This document shows positions 4,208 to 31,583 of a DNA stretch of 64,000 nucleotides, piece after piece. The stretch's first letter is position 1; the number at the start of each line of letters is the position of its first letter. The notes beneath the pieces are model-generated. The model was not told the origin of the DNA, did not search any database, and saw only the letters and a program-made list of their open reading frames with translations. Both the position numbers and the translations under genes were made by a program. Location: IMG/VR virus record IMGVR_UViG_3300029953_000001; one strand, written 5' to 3'. Origin of the DNA: a virus.

Positions 4208-6793
4208 ATGGCAGGAGAAGCAGGGCAGTTGATTCTGGCTCAAAACCAGTATGCACTCGTACAGGACAGCACGGACGGAACCGTTCGAGTATCTGCTGGC
4301 CCCTACAATCAGTCTCTCAGCGGTCAACAGAAGCCTGTCATCTACGACAGCAAGAAGGACAAGTTCATTCCGGTAGCTCCTGAGGAAGCCATCAAGCAGA
4401 ACCCGATGGTACCCGAGGGCTGGTACCTCGTACTGGAGAATCCAGCGTTTGACGACAAGCAGCAGTTGCGTCAGCCGAAGAATGCAGTCAACAGTCTGGT
4501 AGACCTCACAGTAGGTCGCAAGATTGTCATCCCCGGCCCCTTCTCCGTCCCTCTATTTCCCGGCCAGACCGCGACCGCGATTCCGGGTCACCACCTTCGC
4601 TCCAACCAATACCTCGTCATCCGCGTCTACAATGCGGAAGAGGCGACGAAGAACGCTCCTGACTACCTGCGTGAAGCGGCCAAGGCCGAAGTCAAGACCC
4701 CGGTGGATGGTGAGTTCGTCTTCACCACGGGGGGACTGTTCGTCATCAAGGGCACTGAGGTTCCGTTCTTCATCCCTCCCACCGGCTTCGAAGTCCTCAA
4801 GGACATCGGCGACAACAGCGAGAGCTATGTGCGTGAGGCCATGACGCTGGAACGGCTGGAGTATTCCATCCTGCTGGACGAAGACGGCAACAAGCGGTTC
4901 GAGAACGGCCCTCAAGTCGTGTTCCCCGAAGCGACTGAGCGGTTCTTCATCAAGGACGGCCAGAAGAAGTTCAAGGCTCTGGAACTCAACGACCAGATGG
5001 GCTTGTTCGTCAAGGTCATCGCCGAGAAGGAAGCGGCCAGCTTTGGTGTCAAGGTGCCGGAGGGTGCGAAGGAAGACGACGAGTTCATCTCCACCCACTT
5101 CAAGGCAAAGTGCATCGTCCGCAAGTCCGAAGTCGTCGGCGAAACCACGCTGACTCCCTACTTCAAGGTAGGCGAGGAACTCTTCCTGACTGGTGCTGAG
5201 CTTCGCATCTACTACCCGTGTGCAGAGTTCGCTCTCATCGAGTACGATGACCCGACGAAGGGCTACAAGCGTCAGCGTTACTACGGCATCACCATTCCCG
5301 AAGGCGAAGGCCGCTACGTGCTCAGCAAGAGCGAGGGTAGCATCAGCAAGGTCAAGGGGCCGAAGAACTTCCTGCCCGACCCGCGCAATCAGGTCATCGT
5401 TCGTCGCGTTCTGGACGAGAAGACGGTCAACCTGTGGTACCCCGGCAACGCCGAGGCACTCGCGTTCAATCGTTCGCTTAGCGCGTTGGCTGAGAAGTCC
5501 ACGTCCTACCTCGCGGAAGATGTCGTGTTGACGGCAGCAGCAGATGCAGCCAGCAACCGTGGCCTCAACCGTGGTCAGGCCGGGAGCAAGTCGCTCCTCG
5601 CTACGTCCTCGTACGAGGGGGACACAATGCGTCGTGGGACTCAGTTCACGCCGCCTCCGACCCTCACGCTGTCCACGAAGTACGACGGCATCCCGTCCAT
5701 CAACGTGTACAACGGCTACGCTGTGCAGGTCACCAACAAGAAGGGCGAGACCCGCATTGTAGTTGGCAACGCGACGGAACTGTTGGAGTACGACGAGACC
5801 CTCACGGTGCTCGAACTCTCCACCGGTACGCCGAAGAACACCAACAACAAGCTGAAGGCCGTCTACTTGCAGGTTGACCACAATCTCATCTCTGACATCA
5901 TCACGGTCGAGACGAAGGATATGGTAAAGCTCAACCTGAAGGTTTCCTACCGCGTGAACTTCGACCGGAAGTATCAGGACAAGTGGTTCGCAATCGAGAA
6001 CTACGTCAAGTACCTGTGCGACCACATGCGTTCACTGCTCAAGGCGACCCTCAAGAAGAACACCCTTGCGGAACTCACCGACGACGGTGCATCCCTCATC
6101 CGCGACGTGGTGCTCGGCAAGAAGAACGGTGAAGAGAATCGTCACCGGCTCTTCACTGAAAACGGCATGGACGTGTACGACGTTGAAGTGCTCGAAATGC
6201 CGATTGCCAACGAGAAGGTTCGGGGTATGGTGGACAACCAGCAGGTTCAGTCGGTCATCGCGGCCATCACTCTTCAGGCCAGCGAACAGGCTCTGGAGAC
6301 CACTCGCCGCCGCGTCGAGATTGACGGTGAGATTGCCAAGCTCGAAACCGAGCTTGCCCTGAGCAAGAAGGAACTGGAGGGCGAGATTGGCAAGGCTAAC
6401 GCTGATGCTGCTATCGCCATGCTTCAGGCGGATATCGCTGAAGCAACCATGAAGCTGGACTCGCAGGTCGCGGCGGAGCAGCAGAAGGATGCCATTGCAG
6501 CTTCGAATCTGGTGCGGGTGAAGGCAACAGAAGACTACGCACTCTCTCTGGAAGAGAAGCGTGTGGCGTTCTTCAAGGCCAAGATGGAGGCTATCTCCCC
6601 GAACCTGATTCAGGCCATGCTCACGCTCGGCGAGACCACGATGCTGACGGAACTGTCGTCTGCCATCGCTCCGCTGGCTATCGCCGACCGCGACAGCATC
6701 AGCAACGCCCTCTCCACGGTCTTCAAGGGGTCTGCCTTGGAGCCGGTCATCGCCAACCTGTCTCGCCCCAAGGCGAAGGCAGCAACAGCATAA
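4208..6793 (+). CDS. mvp: Major Vault Protein (MVP) homologue, 861 aa
   Basis: The N-terminus ILAQNQYALVQDSTDGTVRVSAGPYNQSL parallels the start of eukaryotic MVP ([28 protein letters not shown]). Repeat units of the form ALxL...F.D..G...GEELFLTG.ELRIY.P are present. The shoulder-domain block DIITVETKDMVKLNLKVSYRVNFD aligns with MVP [24 protein letters not shown]. A long predicted coiled coil (cap-helix-like) follows, then ISPNLIQAMLTLG. The length is close to the 893-aa human MVP. Confidence 0.7.
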   Translation: MAGEAGQLILAQNQYALVQDSTDGTVRVSAGPYNQSLSGQQKPVIYDSKKDKFIPVAPEEAIKQNPMVPEGWYLVLENPAFDDKQQLRQPKNAVNSLVDLTVGRKIVIPGPFSVPLFPGQTATAIPGHHLRSNQYLVIRVYNAEEATKNAPDYLREAAKAEVKTPVDGEFVFTTGGLFVIKGTEVPFFIPPTGFEVLKDIGDNSESYVREAMTLERLEYSILLDEDGNKRFENGPQVVFPEATERFFIKDGQKKFKALELNDQMGLFVKVIAEKEAASFGVKVPEGAKEDDEFISTHFKAKCIVRKSEVVGETTLTPYFKVGEELFLTGAELRIYYPCAEFALIEYDDPTKGYKRQRYYGITIPEGEGRYVLSKSEGSISKVKGPKNFLPDPRNQVIVRRVLDEKTVNLWYPGNAEALAFNRSLSALAEKSTSYLAEDVVLTAAADAASNRGLNRGQAGSKSLLATSSYEGDTMRRGTQFTPPPTLTLSTKYDGIPSINVYNGYAVQVTNKKGETRIVVGNATELLEYDETLTVLELSTGTPKNTNNKLKAVYLQVDHNLISDIITVETKDMVKLNLKVSYRVNFDRKYQDKWFAIENYVKYLCDHMRSLLKATLKKNTLAELTDDGASLIRDVVLGKKNGEENRHRLFTENGMDVYDVEVLEMPIANEKVRGMVDNQQVQSVIAAITLQASEQALETTRRRVEIDGEIAKLETELALSKKELEGEIGKANADAAIAMLQADIAEATMKLDSQVAAEQQKDAIAASNLVRVKATEDYALSLEEKRVAFFKAKMEAISPNLIQAMLTLGETTMLTELSSAIAPLAIADRDSISNALSTVFKGSALEPVIANLSRPKAKAATA

Positions 6794-6808
6794 TCAGGAA
6801 GGGGTAGC

Positions 6809-30055: not shown

Positions 30056-30092
30056 CTGTTCAAAACACCCCATAGCTCTGTATACTACATGC
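30031..30092 (+). promoter_or_regulatory. promoter of the conserved family (UP + GTTCAAAAC + TATACT); ATG 6 nt downstream (leaderless PARP mRNA)
   Basis: aaacacaaaaatttctcaaaaatagcTGTTCAAAACaccccatagctctgTATACTacatgcATG. Confidence 0.55.
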
Positions 30093-31583
30093 ATGGCAAC
30101 GCTACTGACAGCTACGACCACTAAAGTAATCGCGACGAGGATGTTTATCGCCGTTGACCCGATTCAGAACAACAACAAGTTCTACCGGGTAGAGATTTAC
30201 GACGGGCCAATCACCCAGTCGGGCCGTGGCGGCAAGGTGGAGACGGGTTACATCCGCACCACTTGGGGCCGGGTCGGAGCACCCATCGAGAAGTGCGAGA
30301 GCATGTTGCTCGACAGCCAGTCCGACCTCGACGCGAAGATTCGCGACAAGACACAGACCGACAAGTACGGCAACCTCAAGCCGCAGAAGGCTGACAAGGA
30401 TGGCAAAATCAAGCCAGCCTACACCGAAGTCAAGACTGTCGGTGCCCCTGAGCCAGCCGCCAAAGCATTTGGTTCCTCTTCTTCCTACGACAACAAAATG
30501 ACCTCTGTCGCCGTCAAGGCAGCAGCGGTGACCGACATTGCTGGTGCATGTGCCTTCACTGCCGCTCTCGTGAAGAAGCTGGCCGACACCAACCGTCATG
30601 AGTTGAATCTGGCGACTGGTGGTAAGGATAAGGGTGGCGTCTACATTGATGACTCTGGTCTCGTGAAGACCTCTCTCGGCGTAGTTCAGCTTGAAGCCAT
30701 CACGGAAGCCCGGTCGATTCTCGACAAGATGCTCCCCTACGTGCAGAAGCGTGACACCGAGAACGCCAAGTACGCTGCGGGTGGTGGTCTTCTCTCCACG
30801 TACCTCCGCCTCGTGCCGCAGGACGTAGGCACTCGCCGTCAGGGATGGCACACCGATTTCATCAACATCGCCGCTCAGACTTCGCTGCTTGACCAGCTTG
30901 AGACTTCGGTGCAACTCGCCGAACAGCGTCTCGCCGATGCTGCCAAGGGTGGCGATAAGGATGAGGTTGTCATCGCACGCAAGGCACTGTTCGAGTGCAA
31001 GCTTGCTCTGGTGGACGACAAGGACATCTGGAAGAGCATCGAGTCTGAGTTCTATGCCACCGTCAACCGGGGTCACTCCTGCTCTCACCTGAAGCCTGTC
31101 CGGGTGTACGCGGTCACGATTCCTCACATGATTTCCGCCTTCGACGCCGATGGTAAGAAGGTTGGCAACATCCGCGAACTCTGGCACGGTACCCGCGTGT
31201 TCAACATCCTCTCCATCCTGAAGCGTGGCTTCGTACTTCCGACGCAGCTTTCGACCGCACAGACCACTGGTGCGATGTACGACAACGGTGTGTACTTCTC
31301 CAACCAGAGCACGAAGTCGCTGAACTACAGCTTCGGCTACTGGGGTGGTGGGAGCAGCAGCCGGGACAGCAACTGCTACATGTTCCGGGCCGACGTTGCC
31401 ATGGGCAAGCCGTACACTCCCCGTGGTCATGGCGACAGCCGTGCAGCTTCGTACTGCCGTCAGAATGGCTTCGACTCTTGCTGGGCGAAGGCTGGTGTCT
31501 CTGGCGTCCAGAACGACGAGCAGATTGTCTACCGTACCTCGCAGTCCAACATCAAGTACCTCATCGAGTTCGACAGCAAGTAG
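30093..31583 (+). CDS. parp: poly(ADP-ribose) polymerase (PARP) homologue: WGR domain + helical domain + H-Y-E catalytic domain
   Basis: N-terminal WGR: FYRVEIYDG...GRGGKVETGYIRTTWGRVG. Catalytic domain: ELWHGTRVFNILSILKRGF ... GVYFSNQSTKSLNYSF ... CYMFRADVAMGKPY ... DEQIVYRTSQSNIKYLIEFD, which parallels PARP1 LWHGSR...GIYFAD...[21 protein letters not shown]. Start placed at ATG 30093, 6 nt after TATACT. Confidence 0.8.
   Translation: MATLLTATTTKVIATRMFIAVDPIQNNNKFYRVEIYDGPITQSGRGGKVETGYIRTTWGRVGAPIEKCESMLLDSQSDLDAKIRDKTQTDKYGNLKPQKADKDGKIKPAYTEVKTVGAPEPAAKAFGSSSSYDNKMTSVAVKAAAVTDIAGACAFTAALVKKLADTNRHELNLATGGKDKGGVYIDDSGLVKTSLGVVQLEAITEARSILDKMLPYVQKRDTENAKYAAGGGLLSTYLRLVPQDVGTRRQGWHTDFINIAAQTSLLDQLETSVQLAEQRLADAAKGGDKDEVVIARKALFECKLALVDDKDIWKSIESEFYATVNRGHSCSHLKPVRVYAVTIPHMISAFDADGKKVGNIRELWHGTRVFNILSILKRGFVLPTQLSTAQTTGAMYDNGVYFSNQSTKSLNYSFGYWGGGSSSRDSNCYMFRADVAMGKPYTPRGHGDSRAASYCRQNGFDSCWAKAGVSGVQNDEQIVYRTSQSNIKYLIEFDSK

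Follow-up and report, generated by a model that had tools for sequence, protein, structure and literature searches.

The IMG/VR virus record IMGVR_UViG_3300029953_000001 was analysed over a stretch of 64,000 nucleotides (hereafter the window), in which four genes drew attention: a homologue of Ku (which binds DNA ends), a major vault protein (MVP) homologue, a small ATP-dependent DNA ligase and a homologue of poly(ADP-ribose) polymerase (PARP). All four lie on the + strand, spread over 31 kb, with ~60 small genes between them that have almost no family matches. A first-pass annotation of the window had proposed that they make up a eukaryote-like vault and DNA-break module. The four genes themselves are real: each lies at the coordinates given for it on the + strand and passes family or motif tests with matches far beyond chance, and both MVP and PARP withstand validation by profile searches; the module is not supported as stated.

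The + strand carries nearly all plausible genes, tightly packed, from position 1 to ~37.3 kb, while genes on the - strand occupy 37.8–61.7 kb; the GC content is ~54% across the whole window. No virion genes were found in the window, and megablast searches with the MVP gene and with positions 38000–62000 against a collection of 50,697 deposited phage genomes gave no match. The exact MVP protein is also present on short contigs from the JGI metagenome 3300029952 and from several ENA assemblies. Contigs with the identical MVP gene (including locus L004; other loci are likewise designated by L numbers) supply the start of Ku that is missing from the window, together with the gene before it, which has 60% identity to a gene annotated as rIIB (PF26926) in relatives. 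In these relatives, rIIB is preceded by a gene for a protein of 813–822 aa, the size of rIIA. Contigs of relatives measure 248, 328 and 462 kb. From the gene content and the membership of IMG/VR contigs, we infer that the window comes from a huge phage of environmental metagenomes (roughly 330–460 kb), in which it makes up the co-directional early/accessory arm that follows closely on rIIA/rIIB.

The four proteins

The Ku gene begins ~245 nt before the window, directly after the rIIB homologue. The full-length protein scores 193.5 bits against TIGR02772 Ku_bact (cutoff 150) and covers model positions 1–259 of 259. Its best solved relative is the bacterial Ku 9vnq (9e-31), it matches the PHROG family 'Ku-like DNA end binding' at 5.2e-37, and it has 27–30% identity to mycobacteriophage Ku. 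The C-terminus is lysine-rich and basic (...VAVKAKKAKAVAA), like that of bacterial Ku, and would share the role established for the tail of that protein. Judged by these matches, the Ku of the window is of the bacterial homodimer type. The complete copy on L004 (225–1181) has an Ala/Pro-rich N-terminal extension of ~43 aa and carries an inserted HHC...CPTC cysteine/histidine cluster in its core.

The ligase consists of a nucleotidyltransferase domain and an OB fold only, without polymerase/primase and phosphoesterase domains. Its motifs could be read from the sequence as I KHNG, III FVIDGELV, IIIa FFVFD, IV EGIVSK, V FKLKFWK and VI LRNDK, and it matches the PHROG family 'ATP-dependent DNA ligase' at 1.2e-13. 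The best curated match is TIGR02779, the ligase domain of nonhomologous end joining (NHEJ) and LigD proteins (7e-22), at 78 bits against a cutoff of 227.75; with TIGR02776 LigD it scores 71.5 bits against a cutoff of 373.2, which places it outside LigD membership. The sequence is that of a ligase of the bacterial/phage minimal type. The motif I variant EKHNG(H/D)R and motif VI are both kept in the homologues of two relatives, L005 (69% identity, about 7815–8610) and L175 (36%, 18340–19230), and the conservation of this variant argues that the family is functional.

The MVP homologue exceeds both family cutoffs (MVP_shoulder 87.5 bits, cutoff 25; Vault_3 38.2 bits, cutoff 28.8). In its AlphaFold model, which has a mean pLDDT of 64 and several linkers below 50, residues 1–400 form beta-rich repeats, an SPFH shoulder lies at 556–665 and an unbroken cap helix of 125 residues, the element behind lateral oligomerisation in MVPs, extends over 669–793 (pLDDT ~80–86). 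A Foldseek search with this model returned full-length vault MVP chains at the top (4e-22 over ~950 columns), as well as the murine R1–R7 repeat fragment (7e-10). By sequence, the alignment with eukaryotic MVP is limited to residues 494–760 (5.5e-13). The metagenome protein collection contains 3545 homologues at E ≤ 1e-5, with identity down to ~40% among the 120 best, and the viral contigs of IMG/VR gave 278 confirmed MVP stretches, the majority of which lie on contigs of 100–500 kb. In sequence, the MVP of the window sits in a large phage/prokaryote clade, not among eukaryotic proteins.

The shoulder of the human vault binds NAD+, ADP and ADP-ribose in a pocket lined by R504, K506, R507, P508, H509, R511, L517, D521, F522 and W545 (PMC12280208); binding of NAD+ and ADP-ribose is also described in 10.64898/2026.05.01.722283, where TEP1 is reported as an NADase. 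An equivalent pocket was considered for the phage MVP and rejected, as only K506 is kept in the sequence alignment with eukaryotic MVP and the pocket is thus not conserved by sequence. The loop at the equivalent position (S538, G540, P542, K543) is invariant across the phage clade, so that another ligand or contact is possible. A partner RNA resembling vault RNA or tRNA was likewise rejected: ARAGORN found no tRNA-like gene in the window, Rfam gave nothing at gathering score over the window and nothing at E ≤ 1 over 600–4300, and for the 213 nt upstream of MVP, folding was no more stable than that of shuffled copies (z = -0.8). The length of this gap varies among relatives. That MVP might be a protein of the virion or of the shell of a phage nucleus was considered and dropped, because there are no structural genes nearby and its recurrent neighbours are enzymes.

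The longest open reading frame (ORF) of the PARP gene starts at 29919, and the start at 30093, as in the first-pass annotation, is favoured because of the alignment with five other phage PARPs and a promoter-like motif that ends at 30086. The protein matches WGR below threshold (0.0044) and contains the letters WGRVG; its homologues match WGR clearly (7.7e-13 and 3.4e-8), and the alignment of the six phage PARPs places an insertion of ~40 aa in the WGR region of the window protein. From residue 248 onwards, the helical regulatory domain (HD) and the ADP-ribosyltransferase (ART) domain can be aligned with the catalytic fragment of PARP1. H423, Y459 and E534 (in the numbering of the 29919 ORF), which make up the catalytic H-Y-E triad that chain elongation requires, are invariant in all six proteins, E534 aligning with the glutamate of PARP1 'NEYIVY', and the window protein matches PHROG 23333 at 5.8e-48. 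PARP4 aligns to it over the catalytic domain only. The accessory BRCT, VIT and von Willebrand factor A (vWA) domains of PARP4 were not detected in the window protein with Pfam, no MINT model was seen, and the protein leaves no sequence to hold MINT. In sequence and architecture the window PARP is PARP1-3-like, not PARP4-like. In Xanthomonas phage XacN1 (L087), a von Willebrand factor A protein (7264–7914) is encoded directly after PARP; the eukaryotic vault PARP4 carries its vWA domain within one polypeptide.

Table 1. Features of the window, ordered by position, with the matches or observations behind each assignment
Feature	Coordinates	Strand	Evidence
Ku, C-terminal 236 aa of a 318-aa bacterial-type protein	2..712	+	Pfam Ku 7.2e-30
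357-aa protein between Ku and R2K	967..2040	+	homologues at the same position in L168, L172, L174
R2K-clade ATP-grasp, predicted peptide/amino-acid ligase	2053..2841	+	Pfam R2K_3 8.8e-15, R2K_2 2.6e-7
p184, Pth2-fold (peptidyl-tRNA-hydrolase-like) protein	3204..3758	+	model, Foldseek and family PTH2 matches
MVP upstream region	4120..4207	+	sigma-70-like TTGCAG-N17-TACAGT, ~40 nt leader, AAAGGAG 8 nt before ATG; read from sequence
Major vault protein homologue, 861 aa	4208..6793	+	MVP_shoulder 8.6e-25, Vault_3 1.6e-9
DUF2958 protein downstream of MVP	7042..7317	+	Pfam DUF2958 7.4e-7; own TATACT-type motif at 7030
TATACT motif copy 1	10386..10443	+	65 bits; before ORF starting at 10450
TATACT motif copy 2	14081..14138	+	70 bits; before ORF starting at 14147
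TPR-repeat protein directly upstream of ligase	16192..16605	+	Pfam TPR_14 1.5e-7; homologue upstream of ligase in L005
TATACT motif copy 3	16584..16641	+	62 bits; ends 6 nt before ligase ATG (16648)
Minimal ATP-dependent DNA ligase, 269 aa, nucleotidyltransferase + OB fold, motif I KHNG	16648..17457	+	Pfam DNA_ligase_A_M 1.4e-15
HNH-RNA ligase fusion, Rnl2-like	22846..23871	+	Pfam RNA_ligase 2.2e-25, HNH 9e-4
TATACT motif copy 4	28088..28145	+	59 bits
TATACT motif copy 5	30029..30086	+	52 bits; ends 6 nt before PARP ATG (30093)
WGR-HD-ART poly(ADP-ribose) polymerase homologue, 496 aa, intact H-Y-E triad	30093..31583	+	Pfam PARP 3.8e-19
TATACT motif copy 6	34533..34590	+	64 bits
Weaker TATACT motif copies	27745-27802, 35296-35353, around 7000-7035	+	scan
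CCA-adding/poly(A) polymerase-family tRNA nucleotidyltransferase	35360..36658 (likely start 35360)	+	Pfam PolyA_pol 1.4e-34
SIR2-family NAD-dependent deacylase at strand switch	37804..38637	-	Pfam SIR2 1.1e-44; NCBIfam matches
Giant polyvalent protein cluster, 860, 1605, 2485 and 825 aa, with a 1442-aa protein without match	38706..61695	-	domain matches

Relatives and gene neighbourhoods

None of the 50,697 deposited phage records matches more than one of the four proteins, which makes the combination of Ku, MVP, ligase and PARP an unusual one for sequenced phages; within the clade to which this phage belongs, the combination is inherited. A 98 kb IMG/VR contig and a 248 kb metagenome contig encode MVP, ligase and PARP with 55%, 69% and 55% identity, respectively, and keep the order MVP, ligase, RNA ligase, PARP, CCA-adding enzyme. 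On the 98 kb contig the sequence upstream of MVP stops after 1.1 kb, short of the position of Ku. Searches with Ku led to four further members of the clade: L168 (in the order rIIA-rIIB-Ku-...-R2K-...-p184-DUF7736-MVP), L170/L171 (Ku, three genes, MVP), L172 (rIIA-rIIB-Ku-...-p184-MVP) and L174, a 328 kb contig whose MVP has 78% identity and which is colinear with the window for 15 kb. A more distant relative on a 462 kb contig, L175, has Ku (31% identity), p184 (49%), R2K (39%) and ligase (36%), all within 15 kb, and no MVP turned up in the 10 kb that were read downstream of its p184. Ku and ligase thus travel together without MVP in L175, where they have been retained while the genes around them turned over. 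The two genes do not form an operon: 16 kb lie between them in the window and 13 kb in L175. Together, their sequences make a self-contained pair for end joining a reasonable prediction.

Apart from MVP itself, the only gene that the clade conserves at or close to the upstream side of MVP is p184 (L005, L168, L170, L172 and L174). The window protein itself has no Pfam match, and 12 of the 25 members of its family match Pfam PTH2 (PF01981), at best with 2.9e-7. Its AlphaFold model (pLDDT 88) retrieved Bit1 and archaeal Pth2 as the top Foldseek matches (target-normalised TM-score 0.72–0.75, E 1.8e-5), and a search of PDB sequences with the p184 profile gave no match. The predicted fold is a divergent Pth2 fold with an inserted beta-hairpin. 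The profile was also run over the best 80 IMG/VR MVP loci, in which p184 adjoins MVP only in L005. p184 and MVP are a pair at the level of the clade.

The genomic company of MVP and PARP was examined in other phages by collection scans, each of which took the best 80 loci and counted neighbours within 10 kb. The closest long relative (Ga0642623_00018, 328 kb) is not among the best 80 PARP loci of the metagenome scan. Ku was found at none of the 80 other viral MVP loci and at none of 160 PARP loci (viral and metagenome). Near MVP, DNA ligase was found once, in a close relative, and PARP, SIR2 and R2K twice each. A 180-aa P-loop kinase resembling polynucleotide kinase (PNK), closest among solved proteins to T4 polynucleotide kinase and bacterial Pnkp1, was found at 16 of the 80 MVP loci, and a lambda-phosphatase-like phosphoesterase at 13; either is present at 19 loci and both at 10, mostly 0.5–2.5 kb from MVP on the same strand. 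Another metallophosphoesterase lies near MVP at 19/80 loci. A universal MVP partner was sought by all-against-all clustering of the ORFs from the 80 loci and rejected, with no family present in more than 19 loci; an apparent family of 63 loci proved to be an antisense ORF inside MVP. An unannotated protein of ~500 aa, without a solved relative by sequence, is encoded at 13 MVP loci (L040 109–1596 and 12 others), and in 6 of the 13 it lies 0.1–0.6 kb upstream of MVP.

RNA ligase was found within 10 kb of PARP at 16/80 viral and 12/80 metagenome loci. PARP and MVP are close to each other in three further lineages, in which MVP identity is 34–41%, PARP identity is 24–39% and the GC content is 24%, 33% and 35%, compared with 54% in the window. 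In L037/L096/L230, PARP lies 1.4 kb upstream of MVP. L146 has a WGR-PARP, three genes, MVP, two RNA ligases and a PNK-like gene, and L069 has PARP, R2K, AAA, RNA ligase, PNK-like, DFP and MVP in this order. The recurrent company of phage MVP and PARP is thus RNA end-healing and sealing enzymes and not DNA-break genes. A few genes upstream of the cluster in L146, a gene of the DNA polymerase III alpha type (2105–6640) is split by an intein with a LAGLIDADG homing endonuclease.

Homologues of the window PARP in cultured large and jumbo phages (for example XacN1, Xoo-sp13 and FBKp34) are annotated with WGR, PARP_reg and PARP, and the WGR-PARPs of such phages are discussed in Iyer et al. 2021 (PMC7824862). 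Those of Xanthomonas phages XacN1 and Xoo-sp13, Stenotrophomonas phages CM1 and RAS14 and Klebsiella phage FBKp34 have the same architecture as the window protein, with 29–35% identity over 86% of the protein. Unlike the window phage, these five show no match to MVP, Ku or ligase. Likewise, the complete deposited MVP-bearing huge phages LR756500, LR756501 and LR756503 have no match to the window PARP, Ku or ligase.

Upstream motifs and other genes

A consensus scan of the window first gave a recurring TTCAGA-N16-TATACT, which was then extended, and the copies were scored by position-weight matrix. The resulting 58-nt motif comprises an A-rich stretch, TTCAGAAC, N14 and TATACT, followed by 4–8 nt to the start codon. 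Six copies on the + strand score 52–70 bits and two weaker ones 22–27 bits, and none was found on the - strand. The motif also stands upstream of the Ku ATG on the identical contig L004; a weaker copy precedes the CCA-adding enzyme, and other copies precede three genes annotated without function. By the placement of the motif, one promoter class takes in Ku, ligase, PARP and several other genes, with MVP standing outside it. The region upstream of MVP would act as a promoter of a different kind, whose transcript carries a Shine-Dalgarno leader; the equivalent region in L005 reads TTGCAA-N17-TAACGT. The spacing of TATACT to the ATG points to transcripts with little or no leader, and the motif suggests a candidate leaderless promoter class in this phage clade. 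Variants of the motif precede PARP, the CCA-adding enzyme and other genes in the relative L085, variants are also present in L086, and one precedes Ku in L174. In the 55%-identity relative the motif does not occur in identical form, its place being taken by a variant with a different -35 region. In L174, Ku is flanked by genes for a GerE-type regulator and a sigma-70 region 4 protein (4403–4747, 5989–6594), which have no counterpart in the window and could be related to the phage-specific promoter class.

Among the other genes of the window, the 357-aa protein that follows Ku has no match in Pfam, PHROG or NCBIfam. The R2K gene is conserved in L168, L174 and L175. R2K-clade genes recur close to phage PARPs, as in L069 (4277–5173, adjoining PARP) and L099 (6591–7358), and XacN1 has a gene annotated DUF4343, which we take to be an earlier name of R2K_3, 1.8 kb upstream of its PARP (L087 3404–4219). 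The DUF2958 protein downstream of MVP is found at the same position in L174. In the Rnl2-like RNA ligase the HNH domain is N-terminal, and the fusion matches the PHROG RNA ligase family phrog_24030 at 6.4e-102; a 74% identical copy lies 7.8 kb upstream of PARP in L085. The CCA-adding enzyme, which matches the NCBIfam CCA tRNA nucleotidyltransferase model at 8.6e-73, below its cutoff, is conserved downstream of PARP in L085. The polyvalent proteins on the - strand contain repeated ART-PolyVal and GNAT domains, as well as ParB_N, SprT, Tpt1/KptA and a PARP-like stretch, and make up an unusually dense array of NAD+-using domains. Just after this block, positions 61781–62779 encode a collagen triple-helix repeat protein with carbohydrate-binding module 5/12 domains, which could be a fibre or host-binding protein. 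PNK-type enzymes were searched for in the window by tblastn with eight seeds, and none was found. No match to TROVE, NACHT or DUF4062 was obtained among the window proteins scanned, a set that took in part of the small ORFs.

Proposed functional units and rival explanations

We propose, with a probability of about 60%, that the four genes belong to separate functional units: Ku with the ligase, p184 with MVP, and PARP within an RNA-repair/NAD+ toolkit. In the first unit, a Ku ring would load on double-strand ends of phage DNA, either genome termini or breaks made by host nucleases, shield them from exonucleases as Mu Gam does, and hold them for sealing by the phage ligase, making host LigD unnecessary; this end-joining activity is predicted from the sequences of the two proteins. 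In the second, the SPFH shoulder and the cap helix would drive oligomerisation of MVP, giving a cage or scaffold; with p184, MVP may serve translation or countermeasures against RNA damage and not DNA repair, a context that fits the RNA end-healing neighbours of MVP in other phages. In the third, PARP, the first gene after its own promoter-like motif, would be a break-sensing ADP-ribosyltransferase that consumes NAD+, as part of an NAD+/RNA-repair toolkit that further includes RNA ligase, CCA-adding enzyme, SIR2 and the polyvalent ART/Tpt1 domains.

Each component is already known from phages or bacteria, and it is their combination that is rare among sequenced phages. Mycobacteriophages Corndog and Omega encode Ku and depend on host LigD. 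Phage Mu encodes Gam and relies on host ligase (10.1101/2020.04.14.041137). The window Ku is phage-encoded and of the end-binding type, like these proteins; unlike these phages, the window phage, L005 and L175 each encode a minimal ATP-dependent ligase themselves. Unlike in Corndog and Omega, Ku stands after rIIB in a huge phage and not in a 70-kb siphovirus with cos ends. As in bacterial NHEJ by Ku and LigD, a homodimer-type Ku is combined with an ATP-dependent ligase, although here the ligase lacks polymerase and phosphoesterase domains, the genes are 16 kb apart, and motif I reads KHNG and not KxDG.

Bacterial MVPs have been described (bioRxiv 10.1101/872010), and MVP homologues have been reported in the gut phages ctOa11 and ct2Ri15, where no homologue of the vault PARP or TEP1 was found (bioRxiv 10.1101/2023.11.10.566534). 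The window MVP belongs to the same family, with the same architecture, among prokaryotic sequences. In contrast to ctOa11 and ct2Ri15, the window phage encodes a PARP 23 kb from MVP; a Pth2-like partner and RNA end-healing neighbours are not reported for these two phages (10.1101/2023.11.10.566534). With the eukaryotic vault, which is made of MVP, PARP4, TEP1 and vault RNA, the window shares the MVP order of repeats, SPFH shoulder and cap helix, and the presence of a PARP in the same genome. It differs in the WGR-HD-ART architecture of this PARP, in having no TEP1/TROVE among the proteins scanned and no vault-RNA match in Rfam, and in a human NAD+ pocket that is mostly unconserved; any assembly of the window MVP into a closed cage of 39-mer half-vaults is putative. 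A further comparison is offered by RNA-repair systems of modular build in which SPFH/Band-7 proteins act as scaffolds (Burroughs and Aravind 2016, NAR 44:8525, as relayed in PMC13404743). Like these, the window combines an SPFH-type scaffold, in the form of MVP, with an RNA ligase and a CCA-family nucleotidyltransferase, and PNK-type kinase and phosphatase occur at other phage loci, with complete sets beside MVP in L069 and L146. Unlike them, the window has no kinase, phosphatase or cognate small RNA among the features found, and its parts extend over 30 kb and not one operon.

Several observations weigh against a division into separate units, or against parts of it. The motif I of the ligase has Asn where DNA ligases have Asp, so that a DNA or an RNA substrate is uncertain, and a sequence search for a solved relative of the ligase found none. 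Promoter function and leaderless transcription are deduced from sequence alone, and the relative on the 98 and 248 kb contigs has no motif directly upstream of its ligase. The RNA-repair set of the window is incomplete, since no PNK-like end-healing enzyme was found. Ku and MVP are 2–5 kb apart in every clade member that shows both (the window, L168, L170/L171, L172 and L174), and this constant proximity may reflect a functional tie between them inside the clade. Finally, PARP lies 1.4–6 kb from MVP in the three other lineages, which could mean a direct partnership of MVP and PARP; by a rough estimate, this adjacency exceeds the naive genome-wide expectation, which is far below one event.

Such a partnership is the core of one alternative, in which MVP, PARP, p184, RNA ligase, CCA-adding enzyme and possibly R2K form one RNA-repair/NAD+ system, with Ku and ligase as a separate DNA unit. 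An MVP cage or scaffold would then organise break-activated ADP-ribosylation together with RNA end healing and sealing, and would be to prokaryotic viruses what the vault with its PARP is to eukaryotes. The association of MVP with PARP that the first-pass annotation had pointed out does recur as proximity in the three deeply diverged lineages, two of which (L146 and L069) also hold RNA ligases and PNK-like enzymes in the same clusters; end-healing enzymes at 19/80 MVP loci, RNA ligase near PARP at 16/80 viral loci and the NAD+ and ADP-ribose binding of the human vault shoulder (PMC12280208; 10.64898/2026.05.01.722283) agree with it as well. However, PARP is near MVP no more often than SIR2 or R2K (each 2/80), and the signal may reflect shared accessory islands. 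In the window the two genes are 23 kb apart and have different upstream regions, the PARP has no vault-targeting domain, the residues of the human NAD+ pocket are mostly not conserved in the phage MVP, no associated RNA was found by ARAGORN, Rfam or folding, and the three deposited MVP-bearing huge phages have no match to the window PARP. We regard a single RNA-repair/NAD+ system as unlikely, though worth keeping in view. More specific, and more doubtful, is the idea that the MVP cage or SPFH scaffold, with WGR-PARP, Pth2-like hydrolase and RNA end-healing and sealing enzymes, is a virus compartment that would rescue damaged tRNA or ribosomes and buffer NAD+ and ADP-ribose during abortive-infection attacks.

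The original proposal went further, with all four proteins cooperating in a eukaryote-like vault and DNA-break module, with a vault-like MVP assembly as the housing of PARP and with Ku and ligase to protect or circularise the ends of the genome. Its end-joining part is reasonable: the best match of the ligase, far below cutoff, is to a LigD ligase domain, Ku and ligase share a promoter class, and both are kept in L175 at 31% and 36% identity. The four genes do lie on one strand within 31 kb, Ku-MVP synteny extends across the clade, the order of MVP, ligase and PARP is preserved in the close relative, and one promoter class is common to Ku, ligase and PARP. The TATACT motif, however, precedes at least three other genes without assigned function and, as a weaker copy, the CCA-adding enzyme, and does not precede MVP, whose upstream region is unlike those of the other three; together with the 31 kb spread and the ~60 intervening genes, this speaks against one module. 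The label 'eukaryote-like' does not hold either, as Ku and ligase are of bacterial types, MVP falls in the phage/prokaryote clade with a eukaryotic alignment over 494–760 only, and the supposed vault PARP has the WGR-HD-ART architecture without the BRCT, VIT and vWA domains of PARP4. Nor are Ku and ligase tied to MVP or PARP elsewhere: Ku is absent from the 80 other MVP loci and the 160 PARP loci, the close relative is the sole case of the ligase near MVP, L175 has Ku and ligase without MVP in the stretch read, and the deposited MVP-bearing huge phages speak against a dependence of MVP on the other three. In addition, a T4-like huge phage is suggested by rIIA/rIIB and by relatives of 250–460 kb; the DNA of such phages is usually terminally redundant and packaged by the headful, and would not need end joining for replication. 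Overall, cooperation of all four in one module seems to us highly improbable. It is scarcely more probable that the four genes are functionally unrelated, were acquired independently and are co-inherited only by the synteny of the early region. The ~60 unrelated small genes interspersed among them, the absence of any deposited phage that matches two of the four, and the lack of a universal MVP neighbour in 80 loci would all be expected on this account; yet Ku and ligase were retained together down to 31–36% identity despite turnover around them, the pair of p184 and MVP is retained across the clade, and the proximity of PARP to MVP and to RNA ligase recurs in unrelated lineages. Separate units remain our preferred explanation of the four genes.

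New here are the combination of Ku with a phage-encoded minimal ligase, the conserved pair of Pth2-like protein and MVP, the repeated company of phage MVPs with PARP and RNA-repair enzymes, and a candidate leaderless promoter class. If the prediction for Ku and its own ligase is true, the two would constitute a compact two-protein system for end joining that is independent of host LigD; such a kit bears on how huge phages survive host nucleases and could serve as a portable end-joining tool. With its end 6 nt before start codons, the long motif points to a class of leaderless transcripts within this phage clade. The function of vaults has been an open question since 1986. With 278 IMG/VR stretches, compared with two published phage MVPs, and with recognisable enzymes adjoining phage MVPs (PNK-type enzymes, RNA ligases, Pth2-like proteins and sometimes PARP), a hypothesis on the ancestral function of the vault becomes testable in bacteria. 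If the reading as a virus compartment were true, MVP and PARP would have been paired before eukaryotes arose, and vaults would originally have served to respond to damage to RNA and NAD+.

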